A stretch of 64,000 nucleotides of DNA, taken from the NCBI GenBank assembly GCA_051294375.1, contig CM119269.1:17718265-17782264 (forward strand), given 5' to 3'. Shown here in pieces: positions 2,746-63,379 of the stretch. The notes under the pieces are model-generated. The model had not been told where the DNA came from, made no database searches, and saw only the letters and a program-made list of their open reading frames with translations. The position numbers and the translations under genes were made by a program. Numbering within the stretch: the stretch's first letter is position 1; each line of letters starts with the position of its first letter. This DNA is from Paraspadella gotoi (Eukaryota > Animalia > Chaetognatha).

Positions 2746-3343
2746 TCTGGCGAATCCTAAATTCACCTCCCGTATAGCTTGGTGAAACTCAGCTAATCCC
2801 ATTAACTTGGACAGCTAAGTACTTGTTCACCAACCGTAAGTTCCAGGTTCAATCCCCTCACGGTCACGCTGGTTAAAGTGTGATGGTGTCAGCATAAACA
2901 CGCCAGTGACATGGGGTGGTCACTGCAGGTCCAAAGCCCTGAGCGACAGTTGTCAGATGTCTTACACCCCAGACATCACACATGTTTCCCTGTGAGAGGT
3001 GAACTCTACTATTGAACACGCAACCGCTGCCTACCGTCGCTCATTGCTTAAGGGTATGCATCCCACACTCTGTGGCAATGAGTCAGTCACTCTGGGTTTG
3101 GTGACCCCAGTATATCATCTTAGGGGCTCATGTGGCAAATCCTAAATTCGCCTCCCATAGAGCTTGGTGAAACTCAGCTCTTCCCATTAGCTTGGACAGC
3201 TAAGTACTCGTTCACCAACTCATGGTCACGCTAGTTAAAGTGATTGTGTCGGCATAAACACGCCACAGACATGGAGTGGTCACTACATAAGGCCTTGAGC
3301 GCAAGCTGTCAGGAGATGCCTCACACATGTCTCCCCGTTGCCT
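2746..3343 (+). mobile_element. TRIM-like non-autonomous LTR element, family A (twister ribozyme in LTR)
   Basis: Direct repeats start at 2746 (TCTGGCGAATCC) and 3131 (TGTGGCAAATCC). Between them lie the PBS TGGTGACCCC (3099-3108, complementary to the tRNA-Trp 3' end) and a short purine tract AGGGG just before the second repeat. B-box GGTTCAATCCC at 2846-2856. The second repeat carries internal deletions and is truncated. Confidence 0.75.
2863..2947 (+). ncRNA. Twister ribozyme, type P5 permutation
   Basis: P5 CGCT/AGCG; P2 GTGT/ACAC; conserved GA followed by T1 strand TGG; palindromic P1 TGTCAGCA; conserved U^AA at 2895-2897; T2 GC; P3 CAGTGAC/GTCACTG; P4 CAGG/CCTG; L4 TCCA-AAGC. All conserved twister core residues are present. 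Confidence 0.85.
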
Positions 3344-4252: not shown

Positions 4253-5623
4253 AAACAAGTTTGAGCAAACAATGTCGGATCTGCCTACGATAATTAATTA
4301 ATTAATAGATTAATTAATTAATTTTAATAATTATAATTTATATTCAGCTTGTCATCATCGATGTCCTTAAAATTGAGTCAGGACAGTTATTAAATGTTTT
4401 GTTTACATTTTATCATAACAAACAAATATTCTCTATTTTATTTTATGTCTCTCTCTCTCTCTCTCTCTCTCACTCTCTCTTACTCTATCTCTCTTTTTTT
4501 ATGCAATTACGACGATCCTTATGCTTTTAGGATTTTTTAAACTTACATCATTTTTTCAACTTGCATAATTTTTCAACTTGCATTCCGTCAAAACTTTATA
4601 TCTACCTTCTTTCACTCACCTTCCTACCGGCTCACAAAATTTCATCTCAATCTATCATGGGTTAAAATAAATAAAAAGATTCAAGTAAATGTGACTCATA
4701 TTTTTTTCATTTAAACTCATTTCCACTGGTACGTTTCCACCGAAACTTATATCAAGCTTCGTCACACATTTTCCTACCCACACACAAAATTTCAACTCAA
4801 TCTATCCATCCAATTATGATTAATTAGAGTATTTATTGGTTAAAAGAAGTAAAAATATTTTAGTAAATGCGACTTATGTTTTTTCCATTTAAACTAATTT
4901 CCACTCACACGATTCCATCGAACTTTATATCCAGCTTTATCACACACTTTCCTACCCACACACAAAATTTAATTCCAATCCACCAGCCAATCACGAGTTA
5001 TTGGAGCTTTTTGCTAAAGTGGGACGGATGGACAAATTGATTGACTAATTAATTAATTATGATTAATTAACTGATAATTATTTGATTTATTAATACATCC
5101 TGCATATACATTTATATATAAAAAGGAAAAAGAAGCATAATCAATAAAACAGGTTTTTGTTTTTTCCATTTAAACTCATTTCCATCGAAACTTGATTTCC
5201 TGTTCAATCACACACTTTCCTACCCACATACAAAATTCCAGGTCAATCAGCCCATCCAATCATGAGCAATTGGTGTTCAAGAGATGAATATATTTTTTGT
5301 TTTTTTCCATTTAAACTCATTTCCACTCAGACGATTCCATCGAAACTTCATATCCAGCTCAATCACACACTTACCTATCCACACACAAAATTTTATTCAA
5401 ATCCATCCATCCAATCGCGAGTAATTGGTGTTTTTTGCTAAGGTGGGACGGACGGACGCGGACAGAGACGGATGGACGGACATCATTTTTTTTGCATAAT
5501 TTATCATAATTCGATGTTCTGACATGATATAAGTTAGTGCCCGACAATATTGAGGGGTGGACCGGCGGACCGACAAAGTGAATTATAGAGTCGGGATCTG
5601 CTGATAAGCAGACCGACTAAAAA
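4253..5623 (-). mobile_element. Helentron-associated (HINE/DINE-1-like) non-autonomous element
   Basis: On the minus strand it starts TTTTTAGTCGGTCTGC..GCAGATCCCGACTCTATA (inverted repeat plus sub-TIR), has a GTCC microsatellite and several internal ~150-180 bp tandem repeats (tttaaactcatttccac..), a second GCAGATCCGAC near the end, and ends CTTGTTT. Confidence 0.7.
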
Positions 5624-10195: not shown

Positions 10196-13100
10196 TTAGT
10201 TCCACCGAGGGCGTTTGAAATCAGAAGGTTCTCGAAAATCGGGGCCTCTTCTTCCAGAAATTCCGCGCGGAAATCCCCTTCCGGGAAAACCTCCCCGTTC
10301 CTCAAATTGAAAATTCCGCTATTGAATGGAGTGGGCCGAAAAAGAAAAAAATTCAAATAAATACATACATTGCTGATTTCTGTTTTCGCTTCAATTGTTA
10401 ACTTTTGCATTGCACATCTCAAACAATATGTTGAGGCGGCTTAAGACCATTGGAGATGACAGCTTATTTTTCTGATAACATTTTTTTTAATGCATTTAAC
10501 CATAGAACGGTTGCATTAAAAATCCTATAAGTTGAAAGTTACAATGGTACCACATAGCTGAAAAGTTATGTGCGAGATTATCGTTGAGAAATTTGGTCGT
10601 GAAATCTCGCGCACATCTGGTAGTAGAACCGGCGATTTACCTTCCGCCTCTTTCCCTCCCTTATCAAGAGACAGAAAATAAAAGCATAAAGAGAGATTTC
10701 AATTCCGTTTTTTCTTCAGCTTGCTTCGAATCCACAGTCGGAGGAACAGAATTATTTCACTTACTTTATTTTCCTCCTAAAGAGATAGAACACTGATGGA
10801 AGTACTAGAAAATAGTAATCAATTTAAATTGTATTGAAACTAGAATTATAAAAAAAATATTTAAAAATCCGAAACATGTTATGTAAGCTACAAAACGTCA
10901 TTAGTTAAAATTGAAATTATACTATCTAGGAAAAAAGTATATAACAATTCATTTATTCAATAAAAAGTATACATAATATGAGTAAAACATTCTCAATATT
11001 TGGTATGCCCTTCCTCGGCATTGACTACTGCCTACATTCATCTGGGCATGCTTTCATACTGCTAATTAAGTATGACAGTGAAATATTTTTCCACATCTTT
11101 AACGCAATTCTTTGTAGCCCCGATGTTGATGTTACGCATCTTTCCTTTTTTTCTGAGAGCTATAATAATAATTTTTTGAACCAAATGGCATATACTTTTT
11201 TCCCAGATAGTATGATCAATTTAATTTTTAATTTTTAGGCTTTTCTGGAGATTCTAGATAGAAACTAGTGAATTATTCTAAATCACAAAGACAACATAAT
11301 AAATATATATACTTCGTCGTCGTCATGTAACTTTGAAAGAAAACAGATCAGCATACATGAGAAGCATTGAGCGAGGATTCATTTCATTTTTTTTCATTTT
11401 CATTGGTTTAATTATTCTTTTCCTATTTTTTTCATTTTTCAAACGGAATTAAGTAATTTTCAATAATACCGGCGGTGTTGCCAGTGATAAACCGAAAACG
11501 AGTTATCTTACGTTAGGGGCTTTGGACCCTAGGCCACAAGCGGCTTTATTCTTGAACACTTTTTATATCTTTTAGTTCTCTCAAAAAAAAATTTTCCCCC
11601 TTATTATATTATACATATTACATAAATTATAGTCCGTCGGCGGAATTGAAACAAGAATACACGGTGGTCAAGAATTTTGCTAGGATATCATTTTGTGAAA
11701 GGTATTGAGGCTGTAAACCACCGTAGCCGTCGGTAGGTACTGAATATTTGGTCTCACTATTTCGTTCAAAGGATAAAATGGGTTTGGGTCACTTCTTGGG
11801 TCACTTTTCGTCAGAACTAAGAAATAAATCAAGGAATCGCATACCTATGAGTGTTTGAATTTATTTTTCTTTCTATTGCTTTCACAAGTCAAAGCTTCAA
11901 TGATGATGATAAAACTTTTGATGATCATAAAGACTTTTAAAGAGCCAAGTAAAGAAGAAACGGGGTTATCCGTATCGGGAAAGCCCAATAAGGGATACTT
12001 TTACTTTCGCTGACCGGGGTTAGGGTTAAGGGTGATTTAGGGGTGGTTTAGGGTTTTGGCTGGTTAGGGCGAGGAGGGTTTAAGGTTAGGGTAATTAGGT
12101 AATATTTTTTTAAAAACCGCGGTCGGCGAAAGTAAAATTTAGCCCCTAATAATACTTTTTGAGCCCACGATAACCATTAACCACAGTTCCTTTTCTGGTA
12201 GAGATATCTTTAAAATAAAACGATGACTAAAAAGTGTTTTAACACCAACAATGACAACGATCCAGAAAATCAGTTCCCGCACTAATGTTGCGTTTCCAGA
12301 CGTCGTCAGTTACCACATTCTACTAAATATTATTGTGGACAAATTGAAATTCTAAAAGTAAAACGATGAAAGTCGTAAGGAAATTATGAATATGATTTAT
12401 CCATAGTCCAAGAAAAATATTTAAAAACATGTCTGAATAAAACCGCTCCTTCCTGCGATAAATCTGACTTCCGCTTTAACCTCGATTTATAAATTAAACA
12501 AACCATTCTATAAAGCAAAGGTCATAAAATCCTCTCTTGTGATATTAAACTTTCGCTTTCAATAACAACCGAGTGGAAAGTTCCAAATTACTTAGGTCTT
12601 TTGCTTTTTTCTGAAAATATAATCAAATGATCAGCTTTTTTCATATCACTTTTTTCCAAGAGTGTTACGTACATATAGTTTCGTTAAATGCATGAAATCA
12701 TAAAATGAATTTTTTTTAATAAATGACATTAAAAAAATTGTTATCAGAAAAATTGGCAAAGGTCCACCCATCTTTGATAACCAGATCTATCATAATAACT
12801 GCTCGTAAAAATTTCCGAAGATATTTTGACAACGGCGCTTTTACTAAATTCTCTGTCGTCTGGACGTCAATAAGCATATTTGCTGTCATCCCTTTTCGCA
12901 CAATGAACGCGATTCATCTTTCCGTTACTTCGTTTGTTCTGTTTCATTTTTGCTTCCCCTTTCAAATTTCAAATTCTCTCTCCAGTGGTAGAATTAACAA
13001 TTATTAAAAATTAATTTACAAGGGGAAAATAGAAAAGTATAAGATTGATTAAAGAAATGATGTATCGAAAAAAGTCATAACTGACATATGTGCTTAATGG

Positions 13101-24539: not shown

Positions 24540-27500
24540 TTAAAATTCTTTCAATGACTCCGCCGCTTCTGTAGTTAAAGGGCCTCCGCAACCGGGATGG
24601 TTATTTTTATGGCGAAAGATATCGATTTCATAATCTAATCCGAAGCCGCTTTCTATTACCGTTTCAAATCCTTCTCGGGCGTTTTCTTCCATGTGATTCT
24701 CTATAGTTTTTGGATCTTTATTTTCAAAGACATTGTATTCGACGTGGTCATTCCCTCCACTCCCCGATTCTATCCCTAGCACCCTCGCCCCGCAAGCGGC
24801 CTCGAAAACGTCTGCCGCCGTCACGTAATCCACTGCTACGGGATTCCTCTTTACTTGCTTCAACGCGGCCTTCAATTCCAAAAGCAGACGACCGACCCTC
24901 GGCCGCTTCGATGGCTCCATCGCCCAGCAGCGACGCAGCATGTAGTTGATTGATTTTGGGCAACTGTCGGGCGGCGTTAGCTGATTTCCCTCGCAAACGA
25001 GATTCAAAACCTTCAGTGGAGTTGGAGAATAACGAAAGAATTATCATCGGAAAATCTACAAACGTTTGCCAAGGGTGCTCACTTCCTCGTTGGTTCTCCA
25101 GTCCCATGGACGAGCCCCGTAGGCGAAGATCTCCCAGACCGTGACTCCGAAGCTCCAGACGTCGGAAGCTAATGAGAAGCGTCGATAAAGCAAACTCTCG
25201 GGCGGCATCCAGCGAACGGGCAGGAGGTCGTTGACTTGGATCTGGTCAATGGTGGAGATTGGTCAGAGGATGCTTAACTTGTCAAATGTCTTTAAGGCTT
25301 CGAAAATCACCTTGTAATAGTCACCGCTGTGAATGTTCCTGCTCATCCCAAAATCTCCGAGTTTCACGTTTTTCCTTGAATCAACGAGACAATTCCTAGT
25401 CGCGACGTCGCGGTGGATGAACTTACGATCCGCCAAGAAGCTTAACGCCTCCGCGATTTGGCAGCAGATGTCGATCAACTCTTGCGTCGTTATCCCCGAA
25501 GCGCCCGCGGCGCCGCAACTGTTGCCAGCTGTCGTTTTTGATTCCGAATCTTTCTTGTGCCCGGACTGTCGGGCGTCGTTGCGAGTGACGCATCCTAGAA
25601 GTAAAGGCGTGTCGACTCGTGAAGACTCAGAATCGCCGGAGATTTGGTATAGGCCTTTTGTAGAGTGACGCCTATTCGAGTATTTTGGAGTTTGGGGCAA
25701 AAGAAAGTTTACTATTCGCTAAAATAAACAAGAGAACTTATATTCTATATTATGTCTACTAACTATTTTTTAACTCTAAAGTTTTTATTTAAAAAACTTT
25801 ACATCTGATAACAAGCTTTCCCTTCACCTCAATAAATCTTTACCAAAGATCTGTCTCACCTCAAAAAACTTTTTAGGTCTCCTTGATCCATATATTCAAA
25901 GACCATTAAGAAGGGGTCCACGTCAGTACAGATTCCGTACAGCTGGACGATGTTGCCGTGATTGAAGTTCGACATCATTCGAGCCTCGCGCTCGAAACTA
26001 GACCTAAAAGTTTGAGACTATATGAATAAATTTAAAAATTACTGCTTGTATAAATTTTAGTCGATTTTTAATGTTAATAATTCCGGCAATCTTTTTTCGT
26101 TTCCCGTTGTAGAAAGTGATGTTTTCATTAATTATCCTGTCCTAAATCTTAATAATACGATGGCGGGTTGCCTGTGACGCCCATTGGGATGGCTGATGGC
26201 TTTGGGGGCTTCCGACCCTTAGTGAAGCCTCCTGTCACTGACGCGGTTACCCTAGGACGGTCTCGCTTTGCCAACGCAGAGGGAAGTCGTTAGGGCTTTG
26301 TTTGGAACGCCACGCTTGTGGTGGTGTGTTTCCCCTCTGAGCCAATGGGATTGGCTGAACGACGGTGGATCTGAGGCGGTCTGAATATACCGCCACATTA
26401 TCACACTAATTTACAAACTAATATACATTATACAATATAGATGTATAACAAATATGTAAAACAATAATCATGTAATCATCCTCACTGGACATTTTCGCCT
26501 TTGAGAGTCTTAACGGCGACGTAAACTTCTTCATCGTCGATGCCATTGGCGCTTTCCTCGTCGTCGCCTCTGTCCTTCGCGACGCCCCAGCGCCGCCAGT
26601 GCTCGGCAGAGACACGACCCAAGAAGACGACGCCGAACGCACCCTCTCCGAGATCGCGGACGTGGACGATATCGTCGCGGGGAACATAGCGAGTCTCTTG
26701 AGAGGGAGATCTTTTAATTACTATCTTGGAAAATGAATAAGTCGCCGAAACCTTTTCTAGTTTCTGTAACTTTTATAGCTTTTAATTTTTATATTAAAAA
26801 AAATTATATCTATATAAAAAGTAAGTTTTTTTAATTCAAATAAATTTATTTCAATATGAAGAGAAATATCAGAGTGAGGAATAAAAAAAAGGAGGTATAT
26901 GAAAACATAGTGTTTTGAAATAAATTTTTTTTATATTTAGTTTATTTTTTAGATAAGTAACTATTTATTAATAAATTATAATTTAATACCAAAGTCAAAT
27001 GATGCATAGATCAAACCCCCTGCAGGTTATATTAAATATAAGTATAATAATATAGTAAAAAAATGATTAATATATAATAAATAATTATTTTTTAAAAAAT
27101 TATTATAAAATTAAATAGGTTTGAATTTTTATTCATCTTTTCTTTCATTAGAACTTTATACCTATTGCATTTTGACGAACAATAGCTCATTTGAATTACA
27201 AAAAGATAAATTTTTAAATTGATATTAAAAAAGTTAAAAGTTGTGGCGACCTACACTGCGACACGTATTGGATAGCTGAAATTTACAAAGATATAAAAAT
27301 AAAAAACAAAGTTTTTTAAAAGATGAAGCAATTGGTCCAAGTTCTAATAAAATCAAGAAAAGCGATCAAAAGTTATAGGACGTCAAAATCGATTGGTATA
27401 AAAAAAAAGAATTTTTTTTTTAGTCATTAAAATTAATAACTTTTTTTATTATAAAACCAATTTAGTCTAAAATATCTGTAAGTACAGGTGTCAACCATTT

Positions 27501-32063: not shown

Positions 32064-34384
32064 AAAGAAAGAAAGAAGGAAAGAAAGAAATACAATAAAT
32101 AAATAAATGATATAGTGTATATATAAGGCAATTTATGAAAGAAAGGATAAAATTATAAATGATTCGATGTCAAAAATGACACATAAAATTGAAGAATGAA
32201 TACATTCATTGGAAGTAACAGAGCTTCTTTATATCGTGAACCGTTTTTACGATCATTAGATTTTACTGTGATATCGCGTGAAATCGACACTAGAGGATTT
32301 TTCGAAATAGATTAAATGTGAGTACATCGACCATAAACACAGAGAGATTAGAGAGGAGAGATGAGAGAAAGAGAGAGAGAAGACAATAGACAATGGACAA
32401 TATTAATTACTTGCGGCTTTAGGCACCTTGAGGGCCTTTAAAAGCTACCTATTTCTCAAGAATATTTACAAATTGTAATTGACTTTGAAACAAAAGTGCA
32501 TCGCACTTCTAACTACACTCGGTTGAACAAACTTCATGAAACCTCTCTAATTGACAATGAACACAGATTCGCTCCTTTCCTAGTATTTCCCATCCCAGAA
32601 GTAGTTCTATCGGAGATATATTGGTTGGAATACGATTAAAGAAATTCGATCAATAATGTCATCAAAACAAATTATTAAAACGAATTATCCGAGATAGCAT
32701 TCTGTAGAAAAGTCCGCGTACATATTGCTGTAAGGGAATCATGTCTGCTGCATCTAATAAAATATCAGTAGGGGTATGGAGGTGAAATTTTGAAAAGTTC
32801 TTATGGCAAATACTGAAGCTTGTCAAAATTTTCCCAATGACATCTTGCAGCTGAAGCAAAACATGGTGATGAATACATAAATAATGAGACAACAAGACTA
32901 GAGAATAATTGGTAAAACAAGACGGTAGTTATCATTTGGTACAAATCTAGACAGGCGATTGATTGCTAAAATTTTTGATCTTGCTTTAGTAAATAGATCA
33001 TTTAAATGTAGAGTCCATGTTAATTTTTTATCTAAGTTACATCCATAAAAATTTAACTGTTTGACAAACAGGTATTTTACTACCAAAAAGAAATAGTTCT
33101 ATAGCATAATCATTATAAATATGAGTGCGAGTTAAAAGTAAGAGTTTGACTTATCGGGTAAAAGTTCTAAAAACCACTTTTTGCACCATCCTTCTAAACG
33201 ATTTAAAGTTTTTTGGAGACAAGTTACAGCCTAGCGGGATCCTTTGAGGTAGCCCAGACGGATGAATCATCTGCATATTGTGAGGCATTTTCCAAAACAT
33301 CTGTGCTGTTCCATCGCTGGAGTTGTTGTAGACTTGGTTTGGATTTTCTGTTTCGATTAGTGGAAGATCTTCTACATAGAAAGTAAAGATTTCTGGACTT
33401 AAGACGGCACCTTGTGGGGAGCCACAAATGATTTTTATGGTACGTGAAGTTTCACCTTTACTTATAACACAAAATGTTCGATCACTGATGAATGATACTA
33501 TTATTCGTAACATTTCCTTTGGAATTCCTGATTTTATTAATTTGTATTTTAGACCATCAAGCCAAATTGAGTCAAAAGCTTTTGCATAGTCGAGAGTCAC
33601 CAAAATTGTCACTCCTCTGATTTTAAATCCAAGATGAGCATCTTCTACAAGTCGTACTATGTTTTCTGGGGCAGATCGTCCTTTTTTGTAGCCTGATTGC
33701 AAATTATTCCGTTTACCTCTTAGTTCTAGCATAGATATTAAACCTGGAAGAATTATTCTTTCAAAGAGTTTCCAAGAACTGATAGTAAACTAATTGGCCT
33801 ATAGTTTCTGGATGATGTCCGCGTCTCGTCCTGGTTTTGCAATCATTCTGATGTGAGCGAGTTTCCATGATTTGGGAAAGTAGCCAATGTTTAGGCAGGC
33901 ACGGTATATGGCTAACAAGTGTTCAAGACCTTCTTTTGGCAGGTTTTTCAACATGCCATGAGTAATTCCATCTGGTCCTGCAGCTGATTTTGTTTTTAGA
34001 GATTTGATAAGTTCAACTAAATTTTTCATATTAAGATTTGATTTCATGTATTCTTTAAATTCTTCATTTGTGTGTTCTATTAAACCAGTATGGAATAAAG
34101 CTTCATTTTGTTTGACAAAACTTTCAACATGATTCGCCCACTCAATTCCATATTGTTGGACTGGACTGGTTCCAAGAATACCTTCCAATCTATCTGCAAA
34201 AATATTGAGATTGGCGGCATTGTCTTCAGCTTGAGTGCCGTCAGCTCGATAGACTAGTGCATCTGGTGGGGATGATGGCTTATAGTTTGTCATTCATTGA
34301 TTAATTTCCATTTTTTTGCGGAGTCTTTTTCTCTAGAATTTTTTTAACCTCTTTTTCATAGTAAGAATTTAAATCCTTTTTGTT

Positions 34385-39745: not shown

Positions 39746-42700
39746 AGATAATCTGACGACGTTATAGATTTAATAAAGGGAGAGTATCCCTAATGGGGAA
39801 TGGTTGGGGCTACTAGGCGGGGGTTTAAAGGGGGATTTGAAATTTAGAGTTGCGGACAAGTTGCGGACGAGTTGCGGACGAGTTGCGGACAAGTTGCGGA
39901 CGAGTTGCGGACGAGTTGAGGACGAGATGCGGACGAGTTGCGGACGAGTTGTGGACGAGTTGCGGACGAGATGCGGACAAGTTGCGGACTTTTAGAAAAA
40001 AATTTTTTTTTAATAAGAGTTGCGGACTCTTTGCGGACTCCTTATGATATTACATTTTATCTGACAAGGCAGATTAAATCTTATTTTAATCTGGCAAGGC
40101 AGATTATATCTGAGAGAGATTAAATTTAACTTTAATACAAGTCCGCAACGAGTCCGCAACGAGTCCGCAACGAGTCCGCAACGAGTCCGCAACGAGTCCG
40201 CAACGAGTCCGCAACGAGTCCGCAACGAGTCCGCAACGAGTCCGCAACAAACAAATAAACAGAATTTTAAAAATCGATTTGTGAATGAAATCAACACCTC
40301 GGCGATGACGGGTTTTAAGGGATGTGTGGGTTCAGTTGCTCGTAATTAACTCATTCCGATTACGATGTAGTGTTTTAGTCCGGGCTCTTTTTTACTCATT
40401 TCTTGTGCAAATTTATATGTAAATTCCCTGTTCTATTTCTTATCTGTCCAATAATAAACCAATATGCCATATCTTTTACATTCTTCGATATTATTTTACT
40501 TCCAATATCAAATTTCAACGATTTAGTTCCGAGTACATGGTTTAAATGAGTAAGATGCTTTCGTATTATTTAAAAACAAATTTTATTTTTCAATGGCAGT
40601 ACTTAGATTTAATTGAAAAAAAAAAAATTAACCGATAAGAAAACAATGGCCATTTATAGAGAGAAAATATATATACAATAATCTCATCGAAATTCTCTCA
40701 CGAAAAATTCAAGTACGTTTTTTTATTCACAAATCTTGATGAATCTGAAATTTTTTTCTTGTTACTTCTTTTCTTCATAATTTTTACTTTATCCTTACTT
40801 CTCCTCCAAACACTGATAATTAACTTGAAAGTAATCGTGGTGATCCACCTAGTGATGAAAAAGAAAAGAAATATGGCGCTGGCGATGGCTTACGGCAATA
40901 GTTAACGCAAAAAGAAAACCTGAGTGGAGAAAAGGTGGAAACCCCCGCAGTCATTGTGAGTGGAGCTTCGATTCACCTGCACGTCGCATGTTTGTCGTCC
41001 TGTGAAAATGGAAGAAAAGATGTTTTGAATGAAAAGAACCTTGTTTATGATGCAGTATTTTTATTTTTCTGTTGTATTTTTATTAATGAAAAATGTTTCA
41101 TTATAATTAAATATTTCATTTTTTATTCGAAATATTTACCTTTGTGAAGCTTGAAAAAAGCGTCCTTGGGTATCGAACTCTCGTATACTTATATATTTAT
41201 TATATATTTATTTATATTTCTTTCCTCAATCACTTGATTTCACTCTCTACCCCATGGTCCCCCAATCTATGTAAAATCCTTTTTTAGCCGTGGCTACCGT
41301 TGCATCGGAAGGCTCCCTGCGAAGCGACTTTGCAATCATCCTGGTGGAATCGACATCCTTGGTTGCGATTGTCTTTCCACCATCCGTAAAAAGCCTCGCG
41401 TACTCTGAGGAGGAAATAGAGAGGAAACAGAGAGGAAATATATGAGGAATGACAGATAATCGTCGCCATTGTTGAAATCGTCGTCATCGTCGTCGTCGTC
41501 GTCAGCGCTTATCTCTATCTTTTTTTTTTTTAAATTCGTGTTGTTTTCTATTTTCGTTCTCGCTGTTATCATAATTGATTTTATGATTTATTCGATTAAA
41601 AAAAAATAATAATAAAAAATAACGATTAATTATAATAATATTTATCTTTATTCTTTTTGGATATTGCCAAATCTTAAGAAATCGACCGTGTTACTATTTC
41701 TACTCGTTTTTAACCTATTCCATCTTTGTATTGTTTCGTATACTAAATAATTGACTATAAAGCTGTTCCCGCGTTCTGCTCCCACCTGATCTTCTGGTCA
41801 GGCGGGCACTCGAGCAAGAGGACGTGACGCAGCGGGTCGAGAACATTCTCCAGTCGCTCGTGAGGGGCTTCGTTGATCGTGTGGAGGTTAGTGCAGTCGG
41901 AGGCGACGATTGTGGCGCCGCGGGAGATGGCTTGGCAATGATAGATCACCTTCGAGTGGGATTACGGTTGAATTCTTTTTTATGGATATGATTTTGAAAA
42001 TCTGAGGTTAAACCCTGAGTATTGAGTGAGTATTGAGTAATGAGTGTATTCAGTATTCCGTATTCAATTTGATGTAGGAAAAAAAAAAAGGTTTTGGGAA
42101 AAATGGATCTCGACATAGGTAATAAATTCTTGCATTTAATTACCCAAATAAAAAGAAGGAGCTTCGCAATACATCGCGACCTCACCTCCATGTAATCAAG
42201 ACGATCGGTAAAGCTTCCGCACTTTTGGTTCCTGTTCGAATTCAAGAGCCACGACAGAGAATGAGACATCAAACTCTTCTCCACCGGAAACGAACAACGC
42301 GTCTTTCCGTGGCAGTGGGCGATGGCGATATGCATGGCGTCCTCGGTGCAGTCACCCTACAGAGGGCGCGCAGGGGGTAGAGGAATGGAAGGGAAGGAAA
42401 ATGACGGTTATCTCATGGATCTCAACAATTATCAAAATAACTTTTGGTATTATTTTTATAATATATATGCATAATTAATAAATCATTAAGGATTGACTTT
42501 ACTTTACTTTACTTAGCTTAGCAAACATAATTAAAACGTTATAGTACCGGAGTGTAGGAGCATTGTCTATCGGAGGAACTAGACTTTTGCCAGTAACCAT
42601 AGAATGCCTTGTCCACCACGACAGTGTGGGCAGCTGGGCAGGCAATTTCCAAGCGGTTGGCAGGAATTTGGTACCATCTGTGGAAAAAGAGAGATAGGTA

Positions 42701-49418: not shown

Positions 49419-52400
49419 TCCCTACCTTTTGAGTGTCTTCTTTTCTCCGGTTAGTGTTAAACGGTGGGGGAAACCCGAAAGAAAAACCTGCAACAACAAA
49501 GGAATTTCTGACAGATATCACAGCTTCCTGTAGTATATATACTATATATACTATATAACGATCACTTCCCTATAATATCCTGGTCAAATCGAGAGACTCA
49601 CCGTCGTGACCGTCGACGAGAACGCTCCGGTTCGTGGATCCAAACTCGTTGGTCGCCGTCAGGGTGTACCAGCCCATGTGACCCGCTCCCTTGCGGAAGT
49701 TCAGCTGACCTGGATGGAATTAAAAATGGGTAAATAAAAACACATGCGGATAACGACGTAGATAGACAGATTCCAGGCTCCTTTTACCTTCAACGACGAA
49801 ATCGTCGTGATTATCGTCGTCAGCGGCGCAGTATCGTCGCTGCAAAGAGTAAGAGTTGAAAACGCCAACAACGTGGGACGAACAAGGAATCATTCTGAAT
49901 GAGAGAGCAATTTAAGCGAACCAAATTAAACATTTAAATAAATTACGCTAATCAAATCTTAGATTAAATATAATATAAATCAAAACGATCGAAAGTTTTA
50001 ATTAATCAAATGATTATTATCATTACCATTCTCGAGTTCGCGAAATAATGTTCGGAACAAGAGCAGCAATGATCACTAGCCATTCATCAATTCATACATC
50101 AAAGTCCAGCAATCTCTACCCCTGACCTCATCCTGAGCAAAGTGACGCCCCTCCGATCGAAATGGTCGAAGACATCGGCGATGACCTCCGGTGGCTGCAG
50201 GAACGGCCGACCGTTCTTCGCCCAGCGAAGCAGCGGTGTCGGGTGGCCGATGACGAGGAAGACGGCTGCTGGAAACGCTTGCCCGGCCGAGCGGAGTGTT
50301 TCGAGACGGAGGATCGCGGGAGGACCTGAAGAGTGGACAAAATAGGGAGGCCTCGAAACAGGGTAAAATGAAGAATGGTAGATAAAAGGCTAAACACGTG
50401 GTCTTGAGCTGATGGCTTTATCCATTTAAAGCCATCAGCTCATGACCACGAGGTACCGGGTTCGATCCCAACCCGATGTACATCTGCCTTACGGAAAGCG
50501 TGTGGTCGGCCGTAAGCCACGCCTGGTTCCAAGCCGATGTCATGTCTGCTATCTTCAGCCCACCTAGCATATTATCCACATGGAGTAATTTACATATTTT
50601 TTGTTTTTGTTTTAGACGTTTAAAAACATTAAGTAATCTCAAGTTATAGAACGGTTTTGACCTAAAAATAATTTTTAGTAAGCCAAATTGCATGGCGGAA
50701 AATAAATTACTAAAGAAAGAAAATTGGTCTCTTGTTTTATTAACCTTCGACGACAATGGTGGCGTAAGCGTCGAATTGGCCGACGACGCTCTCCGCTCGG
50801 CACGCGACGACGCCGGAGGCCGTCGACGAGATGTTGGGGACGAGGAGGGTCGACACGAGGCGAGTCGCGGTGTGGGACTGAGTTGGGGGGAGGGCCGGGG
50901 GCAAAGCGGATTTTTTTCAAATCGTGGTTATTAATAATTTATATTTTTATTTTTCCTGATTTGCTTGAATCCAAATAAAAAAAATAAAAACATTTTTTTA
51001 GATATTATTATTATTCAAAATTATTAAGAATGCATGTAAAAAGGAATGAAGTAAAAATTATTCCCACGCCCCAAAAAAGATCAAATAAGTTCTTCCAAAG
51101 TTTAAATTCTTGCATATAAGATTGGTTACTGTTTCTTCATTCTCACCCTCCTCACGACGAAGGGAGGCCCGGACACGCCCAAGTCCCACTCCAGCGTCAC
51201 TTCCGGTTCGACGCTTATGTCGACGTCGCACGAGACTTCCGCGACCTCACCCGCCCTTACGACGACGCGGGCGGACGAGAGGCGGGGGCGGGGAGACTCT
51301 AGAGGGGGAGAATAGGGAAGTGAGTCAAGGAAGACGTCGACGTGAAAATAGTTTAAAATATTATTAGTAATATTAAAAATACATTTAAAACTTTCGTTTT
51401 AATACGTTTTTGAAACGAAGATAAATTTTCAGAGACTCACGGCATTGGAGAAGTCGATCGAGAGCAGATTTAGATTCAGGCGGAATGCATTGGCTCAATA
51501 GTTTTTTCTTGCTTCCTTCAACGTCGAATCTAATCAGACATTTCACTGATTTTAAAAATTTATATTTTATCAATGGAATAATTTTCCTATACTAGTTTTG
51601 TTTTAACAATTTTGTCTATGGGCACTGGGCATTATTACGTACAAAGGGTACTCATTAAAATTGAAATTAATAACAAACCCCGCGGTTCTAGACGATTGCG
51701 TCCAAATGTTGGCGCAGACGCAGTGGAAAGGATTTTCCGCCACGATTCTTGGAAAAAAAAAGCGAAAGAGAAAAAAAGATCATTTTATGTTTGGGAGTAG
51801 AGAACGACGAAAAAACATCGACTTCGAGCATACTCACAGCGTCCTTAAAAATAAATTGCGAAATATCTCCCAACTGAGGACATTAATGGCATTGTGGCTC
51901 AAATGGCTGCAAGAAAAAAAATTGAATTTTAAATGAAGAAAATTTATTTCTTAGAGATTTTGACGGAACAAGCACGTGAATGAACATTAACATACATATC
52001 TGTCAAGGTGAGAAGATTGTCGAAAGCGTCAAGCGAAATCGTTTTGAGATTCGTGTGAACGACAGAACTGGCAATGACAAAATAGATATTCAATTTTTTG
52101 AGTAACTCAATATCATTTGCATACTGTGGTTGTTTTAAATTATTTCTATTTTTCTAATATCTTTTAACTAGGTTTTTATTCGATTCGATATGGATTAATT
52201 ACTATAAGTATTATTTTAATAAGCAAAAATAAATAAAAAAAGGCTATTCAACAATTTCATACATAAAACAAATTAAAAGGGCAACGCACATTTTTTCGAT
52301 TTTGACGAAGACTTCGATGTCTTTCCGTTCGAGCGATGTAATTCTCGGCTGATTAGACACGAGACTGTGAAAAAGACAGTTTGCAGTTAATTTAAAATCT

Positions 52401-60995: not shown

Positions 60996-62641
60996 TCAAG
61001 AAAAAAATTCTGATCGTGGTCTTCATATGCTTTAGTGTCGAATATAACGCGGCATATTTTTTGGTAACGCAAGTTCACTGGATGCCAACCTCCATCATTT
61101 AACTTTTATTTATTTAACTTTTATTTATTTAACTTCATCATTTAAGTTTTATGCTTCTAATGAAGGATTTTTTAATTTCCACTTCACTTACACCTAACTT
61201 TACTTTAGGTCTCACAAACTGGGCAAATACTCCTTTAAACTCTTGATTCTGAAAAATAAGTAAACTGTCTCGTGAGCGGCGTAAGTTCTTAATATTTATT
61301 TTTATTATTTTCTCTTTTATTTAGGTTTTGAAGTCAGGTCGACTATTTTCTAATTTAGTGACGCATAAAAAATTCTTAAGGTAACAACAGCAATAAATAA
61401 GGGTTTTCAGAGCTATATAAGAGATATGAGATATGAGATATGAGATATGAGACTGTCATTATGCATTATCTGTGCCATCAATGTACAAAGATATCGCTCG
61501 TGCCAATTTGTCTCTTATCTTAGGTAGAAAACAGGAAATAAAGTAAGGGTAGGCATTAGGTAATATAGGGTGGCGAATTACGACTTGCCCCCCCTCAAAA
61601 CAATTAACATTAGACAAGAAAGGCGATGATTAAGAACCTGTTGACCCTCAACTCAAAACGAGATCCTCGAAATAAGTTGGTCAGTTTCCGCGCATTTCGG
61701 TCGCAAGGGGGCGATTAGGGGCAACTGGGGTCGACTGCTGGGCGTGGTTGACACGGATTATGAAGGACGAGTTCGGAATTTGGTTTCCCCAAAGGAAGGC
61801 GCAGAGGCGTTGGGGCCTTTAAAAGTGATTGACGTTAGCGCGCTGTACCCGAGCACTAGACGTAAAAAGAACATAAGTTCTTTAAGTTTAAAAAAAAAAC
61901 AACAACAAAAAAACAAGAACGGTAATTCCAATGTGTTGCGCCGCAGTGACTGCCTTTTCGAGTGATAACGTGACTCCCGTGACTCGCACTGCATCGGAAT
62001 TCGATCTTTTTTTCATATTTCTTTAGATACAAAAGGTAGCGCTAGCAGTCGCTCAGATTCCAGGTTCAGCAAAATTAACAAAATGTCCCAAGTGTCTCGA
62101 ATGTTGCGAACTAGTAACTACTATTCTACAGGGTAGTGATTCAAAACTTTGAAAATCCCTAACACTCGTGACGCATTAAATATTTCTAAAGAGATTTATT
62201 CATTTGTTCTCTTTAGAATTTTTCTTTTAGCATAGAAATGAGCATAATATTAGTTTTGGGTATATGACACTTGTTGCTTGCAGCACATTTAAATTATTAA
62301 TTTTATAGAACTACCGGAAAGATAAATTCATATATTTTGCTATCTCCTTTATCATGTTTATTTATATTTTTATTGACACAATGCATGCAAATTTCAAATG
62401 AGGAGGGATTTTTATTTTGAAAATCGATCAAAAAAATTAGTTGATAATGAATTTATAATAATGAACTGCTTTAGGTAAAAAAATTAATTGTCCATTAAAG
62501 CGTAGAAAAAATATTAAAATCAATTAGAATCAAAATTCGAATAGTGGATCATGCTTGTACCTGTGAACATTTTTAAATAAAAAATATTTTGAAGAGACAG
62601 TAATTATTGTTATATGTTAGTGACAGAACCGTTCAATATAA

Positions 62642-62715
62642 GCAGTCCCTGAGCTTCGGATCAGGCTGTAACACCATGTTACAGGCGGGTTAAGCGCCCC
62701 GTCCCTCTTAACTGC
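62642..62715 (-). ncRNA. Twister ribozyme, type P5 (3' LTR)
   Basis: P5 GCAGTT/GACTGC; GA plus T1 CGGG pairing with L4 TCCG; palindrome GGCGCT; U^AA (cut 62692/62691); short P2; T2 GC; P3 CTGTAACA/TGTTACAG; P4 CCTGA/TCAGG; L4 TCCG-AAGC. Confidence 0.8.
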
Positions 62716-63060
62716 CAGACGACCACCGGGCAAGAACCCCGGACCTTTGGGTTGGGAGGCGAATGACTTGCCTCCGGCACCAATGGCCGCTGTGAACGGT
62801 TGGTGGATTTTTAGTCCACCATACATCCCCCCTCCCGTAGGGAGAAGTCTGTTGCGTCTCTTCAGTGAATTGTTGTTGTTGTGGAAAGTTCGTCACCAAG
62901 TTGAGGCATGTCGCCTGATGTGTTGTGGGCGGAAAGTGCATCACCAGGTTGAGGCATGTCGCCTGAAAGTGTTGTTGTTGCTGTTGTGTTCGGAAGTCGG
63001 GCTCACAATGAAGAGACAGTAATTATTGATATATGTTAGTGACAGAACCGTTCAATATAA

Positions 63061-63134
63061 GCAGTCCCTGAGCTTCGGATCAGGCTGTAACACCATGTTA
63101 CAGGCGGGTTAAGCGCCCCGTCCCTCTTAACTGC
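63061..63134 (-). ncRNA. Twister ribozyme, type P5 (5' LTR)
   Basis: Identical 74 nt to 62642-62715; cut predicted between 63111 and 63110. Confidence 0.8.
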
Positions 63135-63379
63135 CAGACGACCACCGGGCAAGAACCCCGACCTTTGGGTTGGGAGGCGAAGACTTGCCTCCGGCACCAA
63201 TGGCCGCTGGATGACGGTTGGTGGATTTTAGTCCACCATAATTTATTATTTTTTTTCAATTTTTGCATATGCCTATATTTATACCTAGTACTCACCATAA
63301 AAAATGCTAAAATTTTAAAATGTTTTTTTCCTATTTTTGAAAGCAGAATTGAATTCCTCACAAAAAGTTGACTACAATA

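Follow-up and report, generated by a model that had tools for sequence, protein, structure and literature searches.

The window is a 64-kb stretch (64,000 nucleotides) of AT-rich animal DNA with small introns. It carries a splicing-factor gene, a tyrosine kinase, an acyl-CoA ligase and zinc fingers. No tRNA was found in the window by ARAGORN at default settings, and no Rfam family matched it at the gathering threshold. Four elements, A to D, were found by locating the words quoted in the original prediction, every one of which lies where it had been placed. No Gypsy gene was identified among the 33 of 147 window ORFs scanned. The window also holds a broken fragment of a non-LTR retrotransposon reverse transcriptase (33151-34293, minus strand; Pfam RVT_1, E 6e-16), two inverted arrays of an 11-nt unit on either side of a 130-nt core, an arrangement characteristic of fold-back DNA elements (39847-39989 and 40141-40248), a 150-270-nt unit in five diverged tandem copies (4582-5457), and direct and dispersed AT-rich repeats unrelated to the LTR elements (60493-60717/60767-60995; 24116-24517/60352-59938; 23957-24140/63800-64000). 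The features of the four elements are as follows.

2746-3343, plus strand: family A element, two repeats, 598 bp, LTRs 75% identical
2746-2997, plus: A1, the 5' LTR; older and partly decayed, 75% identical to A2, 3' end approximate
2749-2767, plus: A1 terminal (U3-end) hairpin, from folding; the family majority completes the stem
2790-2803, plus: A1 CAGC...CCATT, putative Pol III start region with a remnant of the 5' acceptor strand
2803-2814, plus: A1 A-box remnant, TAACTTGG in the window copy, TGGCTTGG in the family majority
2846-2856, plus: A1 B box GGTTCAATCCC, 44 nt after the A-box T
2867-2945, plus: A1 predicted type-P5 twister, predicted cut 2895/2896 (Rfam, descriptor, pair counts)
2998-3130, plus: A internal part, with a degenerate primer site and a weak purine tract
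3131-3343, plus: A2, the 3' LTR; B box deleted, ribozyme loops L1 and L4 damaged, 30.8 bits with model R1
26165-26397, minus: family B, solo-LTR-like; single copy in a tyrosine-kinase intron, on the gene's strand, 3' end approximate
26394-26375, minus: B hairpin, from folding
26344-26334, minus: B A box, word located
26308-26300, minus: B degenerate B-box core GTTCCAAAC, 36 nt after B's A box
about 26275-26199, minus: B predicted twister, from the descriptor
50399-50594, plus: element D; fold-back 5' end, incomplete twister-like motif, ends TTACA, membership uncertain
50459-50469, plus: D B box, word located
63240-62590, minus: family C element, 651 bp; LTRs of 232 and 234 nt, 97% identical, internal part 185 nt
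63009-63240, minus: C1, the 5' LTR, 232 nt
63237-63220, minus: C1 hairpin, from folding
63199, minus: C1 A-box word, located
63157, minus: C1 B box, word located
63207-63137, minus: C1 tRNA-like part (ARAGORN, geometry)
63134-63061, minus: C1 predicted twister, predicted cut 63111/63110
62590-62823, minus: C2, the 3' LTR, 234 nt, ends CA
62820-62802, minus: C2 hairpin, from folding
62782, minus: C2 A-box word, located
62790-62718, minus: C2 tRNA-like cloverleaf remnant, 73 nt
62738-62728, minus: C2 B box, word located
62715-62642, minus: C2 predicted twister, predicted cut 62692/62691
62996-63008, minus: C primer-binding site (PBS); the window copy is short of one G, the majority begins T-TGGTGAG
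62826-62836, minus: C polypurine tract (PPT), abutting the second repeat
63241-63244 and 62589-62586, minus: left and right copies of the C target site duplication (TSD) AAAT, 4 bp; chance 4-mer match 1.2% per register

Families A and C were checked against contigs from public runs, and B and D are described from their window copies alone. The contigs on the C copy comprise 17416 (run X1), 2826 (X5), 1035 (X9) and 2 (X10) records, with variants scored from 10% of depth (40 of 45 listed); those on the A copy comprise 1969 (X1), 1835 (X2), 1053 (X5) and 190 (X9) records, with variants scored from 35% of depth, all of them listed. Family percentages are shares of summed contig depth and not copy numbers. 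Contigs were admitted at a likeness of at least 80% to the window copy, which biases the result toward apparent conservation. Because of this threshold, and because young families are uniform anyway, majority conservation in the contigs is no proof of selection, and the comparison of A with C is more telling than the majority within either family.

The family C element is almost certainly a complete TRIM, with all the parts of an LTR element. Its 3' end is fixed at 62590 (CA), where 99, 53 and 22 contigs (X1, X5, X9) run into unrelated flanks, and this fixed end has no tail. An extra base at 63005, present in 54%, 56% and 96% of depth in the same runs, gives the majority a primer site TGG one base after CA. 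The site agrees at 12 of 13 positions with the published tRNA-Trp site (Fig. S2 of PMC10886601), the comparison being with that site and not with host tRNAs. The C LTR starts TATGG, and this register yields the 4-bp TSD, which is seen in one of the three elements; a TG start for C leaves no TSD and was rejected. The original prediction had all three families start with TG. This is so for A2 and B, which both start TGTGG, but C starts TA and A1 reads TCTGG.

Nearly all differences between the two C LTRs (63240-63158 versus 62823-62740, minus strand) are small indels, five in number, that lie upstream of the predicted cut, with one substitution downstream. Some of them match variants segregating in the family, and recombination or assembly error may have contributed. 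The internal part of C contains two direct repeats (62960-62885, minus strand), which include a small hairpin CAGGCGACATGCCT flanked by CAA-rich spacers and may serve as a packaging or dimerisation signal. Seven metagenome loci matching a 19-nt C motif were taken as chance, as all seven match the motif alone (19-24 nt) within GC-rich flanks.

Family A is an older, decayed copy, and the damage to the A2 ribozyme belongs to this general decay (75% LTR identity). Family A contigs stop matching at 2748, and the loose letters there end in TG. The LTR end reads CA followed by TGGTGAAC in seven family A contigs, with loose ends before 2998 in four (X2), one (X5) and two (X9). The A2 B box was lost through a 23-nt deletion. 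A Trp-like word at about 3100-3110 was rejected as the A primer site, since a primer site belongs at the other end of the internal part, and the word sits inside a hairpin. No TSD was found for A or around B.

Element D differs from the others at its 5' end (50399-50452, plus strand), where a near-perfect fold-back of about 25 bp stands in place of the 5' half of the tRNA-like head. Its twister-like motif has L4 and lacks the GAnnG strand, and it is not recovered by model R1. The fold-back looks as if made by template switching. Since the 5' part of D is a fold-back with no shared head, D contributes a B box only.

A colinear head is shared by A1, A2, B, C1 and C2. It opens with T(G/A/C)TGG, followed by the hairpin, CAGC and CCATT, and CAGC..CCATT(A/G) is present in all five. 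The terminal hairpin, the CAGC..CCATT motif and the quoted box words are where the original prediction had them in A, B and C, and its A stem, pieced together from both A copies, was right: position 2765 is G in 91-98% of depth in four of four runs and completes the stem. The joint pattern of hairpin, CAGC and CCATT occurs at four places in the window and at none in 60 shuffles, a post hoc count with a pattern written from these copies. The folding z-scores of the hairpin are -3.3 (A1), -1.1 (A2), -3.9 (B), -4.3 (C1) and -4.2 (C2). Two of its five pairs are changed on both sides between families, and the covariation score was reached by 17 of 500 shuffles.

The box words by themselves are not above chance in the window (strict B box, 2 against 0.73 expected; A-box word, 350 against 348), so that their value lies in position and spacing across three diverged families. 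The A and B boxes are 43-45 nt apart in A and C and 36 nt apart in B. Counted from the A-box T to the B-box G, the distance is 44 in A1, 45 in C2 and 43 in C1; in a standard tRNA it is 45. Between the A and C heads blastn finds nothing that exceeds 12 nt, yet both keep GGTTC-n-A-nn-CC 43-45 nt after the A-box T. The words themselves are TGGCT-TGG and GGTTC in the A majority, TGGTG (for TRGCY) and GGTTC in C, and TGGCT and only GTTC in B. In B, where a B box had been described as not evident, the degenerate core GTTCCAAAC is present.

The contigs treat the two boxes differently. The family A B box GGTTCAATCCC has no alternative letter at 35% or more in any of four runs, and the majority B box of family C is GGTTCTAGCCC, with the invariant A in 91-99% (3' LTR) and 89-100% (5' LTR) of depth. 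Positions 2804 and 2805 are G in 94-99% of depth in four of four runs, which gives the majority A box TGGCTTGG. The family C A box stays TGGTGCCGG, with the canonical A (position 14) in 4-13% of depth. This A is missing from the A box in the majority of both A and C, and the A boxes are non-canonical. At the level of family consensuses, the proposed B box stands, being canonical or near-canonical in most A and C sequence, and the proposed A box is imperfect. The head feature is real in A, B and C with these corrections, and the original prediction is in this respect partly confirmed.

There is little doubt that the shared head is tRNA-derived. The head of C, 73 nt long, has the geometry of an acceptor stem and a T stem, and ARAGORN weakly calls it tRNA-Gly(CCC) at a threshold of 80%, where 19 of 200 shuffles also give a hit. 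The A and B heads give no ARAGORN call down to 60%. The cloverleaf of C is far from its minimum-energy fold (-17 versus -33 kcal/mol), and G-C replaces two of its acceptor-like G-U pairs in 41-67% and 17-20% of depth. Tandem SINE-like units moved by a non-LTR enzyme, or a tRNA-like part kept as an RNA fold and not as a promoter, would be another account of the repeats. Precedents exist in the tandem units of Schistosoma, which join a Pol III promoter to a ribozyme (PMC6765202), and in the twisters of RTE-type non-LTR elements (PMC8501958, PMC7761336), and the acceptor-stem variants in C favour pairing. But the A head forms no cloverleaf fold, and C has a TGG primer site one base past CA, a purine tract at the second repeat, a tailless fixed 3' end and a 4-bp TSD. 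We regard both forms of this account as very improbable. A tRNA-derived SINE would be a single unit with a LINE-like or A-rich tail and neither PBS nor PPT, whereas C has LTRs, PBS, PPT and a CA end.

Downstream of the head, where the original prediction had placed a twister, a predicted twister fold is present in A1, B, C1 and C2. Rfam recognizes it poorly: the twister-P1 model scores 22 bits on A1 (E 0.056; gathering cut-off 67.2), and up to E 10 no twister is matched in B or C. No hammerhead was matched by Rfam in these elements. The strand that complements L4 is absent downstream and present upstream of the U-A site in the three families; the P1-type twister suggested by Rfam was rejected, as the GAnnG strand precedes the U-A site in all of them. 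The L4/L1 pairs are TCCAAAGC/GATGG in A, TCGGAAGC/GACCG in B and TCCGAAGC/GACGG in C, the strand changing with the loop. A short closing stem P5 was identified by eye (CGCT/AGCG, TTGG/CCAA and GCAGT/ACTGC). All the type-P5 features tested are present: the U-A site, the L1 G-A, L4, T1, T2, P2, P4 and P5 closure. This permutation of the twister is known (PMC10085705, PMC6765202).

With T1 pairing as a requirement, a descriptor search picks out A1, B, C1 and C2; shuffled sequence gives 0.12 hits on average (100 shuffles). In the MAFFT alignment 35 of 39 cells pair, and slid controls reach at most 51%. The paired cells amount to 9/9 in T1, 6/6 (100%) in T2, 11/12 in P4 and 9/12 in P2. Five of 13 pairs are changed on both sides, with a covariation score reached by 1 of 500 shuffles, a comparison of three distinct sequences against a structure drawn from the same sequences. 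Positions and residue roles in the twister follow the Rfam consensus and PMC8501958. B and C have an imperfect P2, and P1 is reduced to 2 bp or almost missing. The C1 and C2 ribozymes are identical, and the A ribozyme core differs from the family majority at a single position (2891), in the P1 loop. In the twister P1 is dispensable. We consider it very probable that the family carries an active twister. The permuted twister here is missed by Rfam, and the predicted type-P5 form in each LTR, with its covarying pseudoknots, is the new part of this analysis.

Model R1 recovers no further full copies in the window beyond its four training sequences and A2. An isolated twister-like P4/L4 hairpin GGGTCCAAAGCCCC lies at 11515-11545 (minus strand; E 0.052 with model R1) with the rest of the motif missing, and is possibly a remnant copy. 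The B ribozyme is mismatched in P2, P3 and P4, and the kinase pre-mRNA may thereby be spared from being cut.

No run of four or more T occurs on the sense strand of any of the four elements, so the internal Pol III terminators that would have counted against the original prediction are absent. Such absence is rare in the window, where 24 of 2538 and 16 of 2534 stretches of the same length are T4-free. Shuffles that keep the composition give each element a P of 0.14-0.90 (product about 0.02-0.03), which for a single element is weak significance. Judged from sequence, the head is likely to be a working Pol III promoter. The boxes could instead be vestigial, the LTR having captured a tRNA-derived SINE together with its twister. 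In this explanation the ribozyme pair excises the unit from Pol II read-through or intron RNA, or from RNA started by a Pol II promoter close to the AT-rich loop of the hairpin. The imperfect A boxes of A and C would fit such a relic, as would the sense orientation of B in the kinase intron, the AT-rich hairpin loops 21-36 nt upstream of CAGC and the frequent lack of a promoter in ribozyme-bearing elements, which depend on co-transcription (PMC6765202). A relic would not be expected to keep the B-box core and the 43-45-nt spacing in A and C despite diverged surroundings, or to avoid sense-strand T4 in all four elements, and we find it unlikely.

If the promoter is active, TFIIIC would bind the boxes and Pol III would initiate in the vicinity of CAGC, some 10-13 nt ahead of the A box. 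With no sense-strand T4 to stop it, the polymerase would read on past the 3' LTR as far as the first T run of the flanking DNA. We explain A, B and C best as kindred LTRs of Helenus-type TRIMs with a predicted ribozyme in each LTR, and such a read-through RNA is predicted to be cut once in each. In C, cuts by both ribozymes at U-A would release a 419-nt unit (63110-62692, minus strand) made up of U5, PBS, internal part, PPT, hairpin and the 3' copy of the promoter; the 5' copy would be lost, and no terminal repeat would remain. By analogy with plant LTR retrozymes, a host ligase may close this unit into a circle, a Trp-like tRNA may prime reverse transcription round it, and both LTRs may be rebuilt from the single copy. 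The copying itself would fall to a Gypsy-type helper. In the 5' LTR the U3 hairpin would precede the likely start, and in the RNA it would directly follow the PPT; its role, speculatively, would most likely be in plus-strand priming or end recognition. Folded as a circle, the unit has an energy of -126.5 kcal/mol, a mild excess over that of 60 shuffles (-110.6 +/- 7.9 kcal/mol).

The original prediction held that the twister removes the promoter leader. One half of this agrees with the present model, in that the 5' ribozyme follows the head; it is incomplete in that the 3' LTR carries an identical ribozyme, for which a second cut is predicted. Spelled out as a model, the earlier proposal would have Pol III start in the 5' LTR and the 5' ribozyme alone trim the leader, leaving a linear RNA for ordinary LTR reverse transcription, with the stretch from the cut site to the LTR end as its repeat. 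Such a course would need no ligase, and in the A copy the A1 ribozyme is intact and the A2 ribozyme broken. The CAGC strand can also pair at or beside the P5 strand and could inhibit cutting in some molecules. The A2 damage, however, is part of the general decay of an old copy. In C the ribozymes are identical and no T4 precedes the 3' LTR end, and therefore nothing in the sequence spares the second site. A second cut would then set the 3' end and yield a unit without terminal redundancy. A single 5' cut seems to us quite unlikely, and a circular RNA intermediate, proposed by analogy, rather likely. The whole scheme of Helenus-type LTRs with a tRNA head (likely used by Pol III), a type-P5 twister, a double cut, probable circularisation and copying by a Gypsy helper lies, in our estimate, just on the probable side.

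Among known elements, Cassandra and Ajax are TRIMs with a small-RNA-derived Pol III promoter, composed of 5S-derived A, IE and C boxes. Cassandra had been named as the parallel; it likewise has its promoter in a TRIM LTR, but the promoter here is of the tRNA type with a B box, and Rfam gives no 5S match at E 10 or below. The nearer class is the tRNA-derived Helenus/TRIMp3 group, and a tRNA-type promoter head is therefore already known. Helenus elements (Kojima 2024, PMC10886601) are TRIMs with tRNA-derived A and B boxes in the LTR, described from six animal phyla. They are shorter than 1.3 kb and have a PBS for a tRNA 3' end, a PPT and, in animals, a 4-bp TSD, and both a Gypsy helper and the use of Pol III are inferred for them (PMC10886601). 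C shows paired LTRs, PBS, PPT, 4-bp TSD and tRNA-derived LTR sequence, with a weak PPT in A. As C has every sequence feature tested, its promoter head is a member of the Helenus kind, and the head by itself is ordinary Helenus biology.

What sets the elements apart from known Helenus is the conserved terminal hairpin and the predicted permuted twister in each LTR. In most listed Helenus LTRs little sequence follows the B box, and many close with a T run, whereas here a further 120-150 nt with a twister fold and no T4 follow; C also starts TA, unlike Helenus. The main text of PMC10886601 makes no mention of a twister, a hairpin or self-cleavage, and the matches listed for twister loop words in its DataS1, where line breaks may split words, include no twister-like context. 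On inspection by eye, two gall-wasp elements in DataS1, Helenus-2_SyJa and Helenus-2_SyUm, show the same layout: TG leads directly into a hairpin, CAGC stands just ahead of the A box, and a B box is present. They show no T4 in the LTR and a tRNA-Trp primer site, and their internal parts do hold T4 runs. The same inspection gives an apparent hammerhead core (CTGATGAG...GAAAC) 3' of the B box in place of the twister found here. This apparent hammerhead has complementary loops, also by eye, and is absent from the description in PMC10886601.

Plant LTR retrozymes are non-coding and carry a self-cleaving ribozyme in each LTR, a PBS and a PPT, with a Gypsy helper inferred (PMC4918200, PMC9695139). 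Double cleavage gives them an R-less unit that is circularised (PMC4918200), and in the Nicotiana retrozymes the LTR promoter lies upstream of the ribozyme (PMC9695139). In vitro, RtcB ligates the retrozyme units of animals (PMC7229834). Each C LTR has a predicted ribozyme, as in a retrozyme, but not the hammerhead by which retrozymes are defined. The plant elements have type III hammerheads and circles of 600-1000 nt, with no tRNA-type promoter mentioned in these sources; the present ones are animal, with a predicted twister and a predicted unit of 419 nt. As modelled here, the element resembles a retrozyme in its mode of action, but we do not class it among them. It would carry LTR retrozymes into animals and to a second ribozyme class, and would unite two separately described classes, the TRIMs with Pol III promoters and the ribozyme-bearing LTR retrozymes. 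It is possible, if not quite probable, that these are animal 'Pol III retrozymes', a self-promoting and self-circularising branch of LTR elements with an exchangeable ribozyme, copied from a circle of about 400 nt. The LTR would then consist of a tRNA-type promoter, a terminal hairpin and a ribozyme (twister here, hammerhead in the gall-wasp Helenus-2), with the ribozyme taking the place of the Pol III terminator as well as of the R repeat. This offers an answer to how a Pol III LTR element sets its RNA ends without a terminator or a poly(A) site. Elements of this sort would be abundant and would stand in catalogues as SINEs or tRNA pseudogenes, overlooked by Rfam.

In RTE/Perere elements with twisters and in the Schistosoma hammerhead SINE, a ribozyme processes the retroelement RNA (PMC8501958, PMC7761336, PMC6765202). 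These are non-LTR elements, while the ribozyme here has a permuted strand order (GAnnG before the U-A site) and lies in an LTR. The literature searched, with most subscription journals and Repbase outside its scope, describes no twister in an LTR and no ribozyme in a Pol III TRIM, and an earlier description is possible. The present elements would supply natural eukaryotic permuted twisters undetected by Rfam. A last parallel is the engineered tandem-twister system for circular RNA expression, which reportedly uses a Pol III promoter. In that system two twisters free the RNA and a host ligase joins its ends (PMC7229834). It is synthetic, whereas the elements described here would be its natural and mobile counterpart, nature's own version of the twister-based circular RNA expression of biotechnology.
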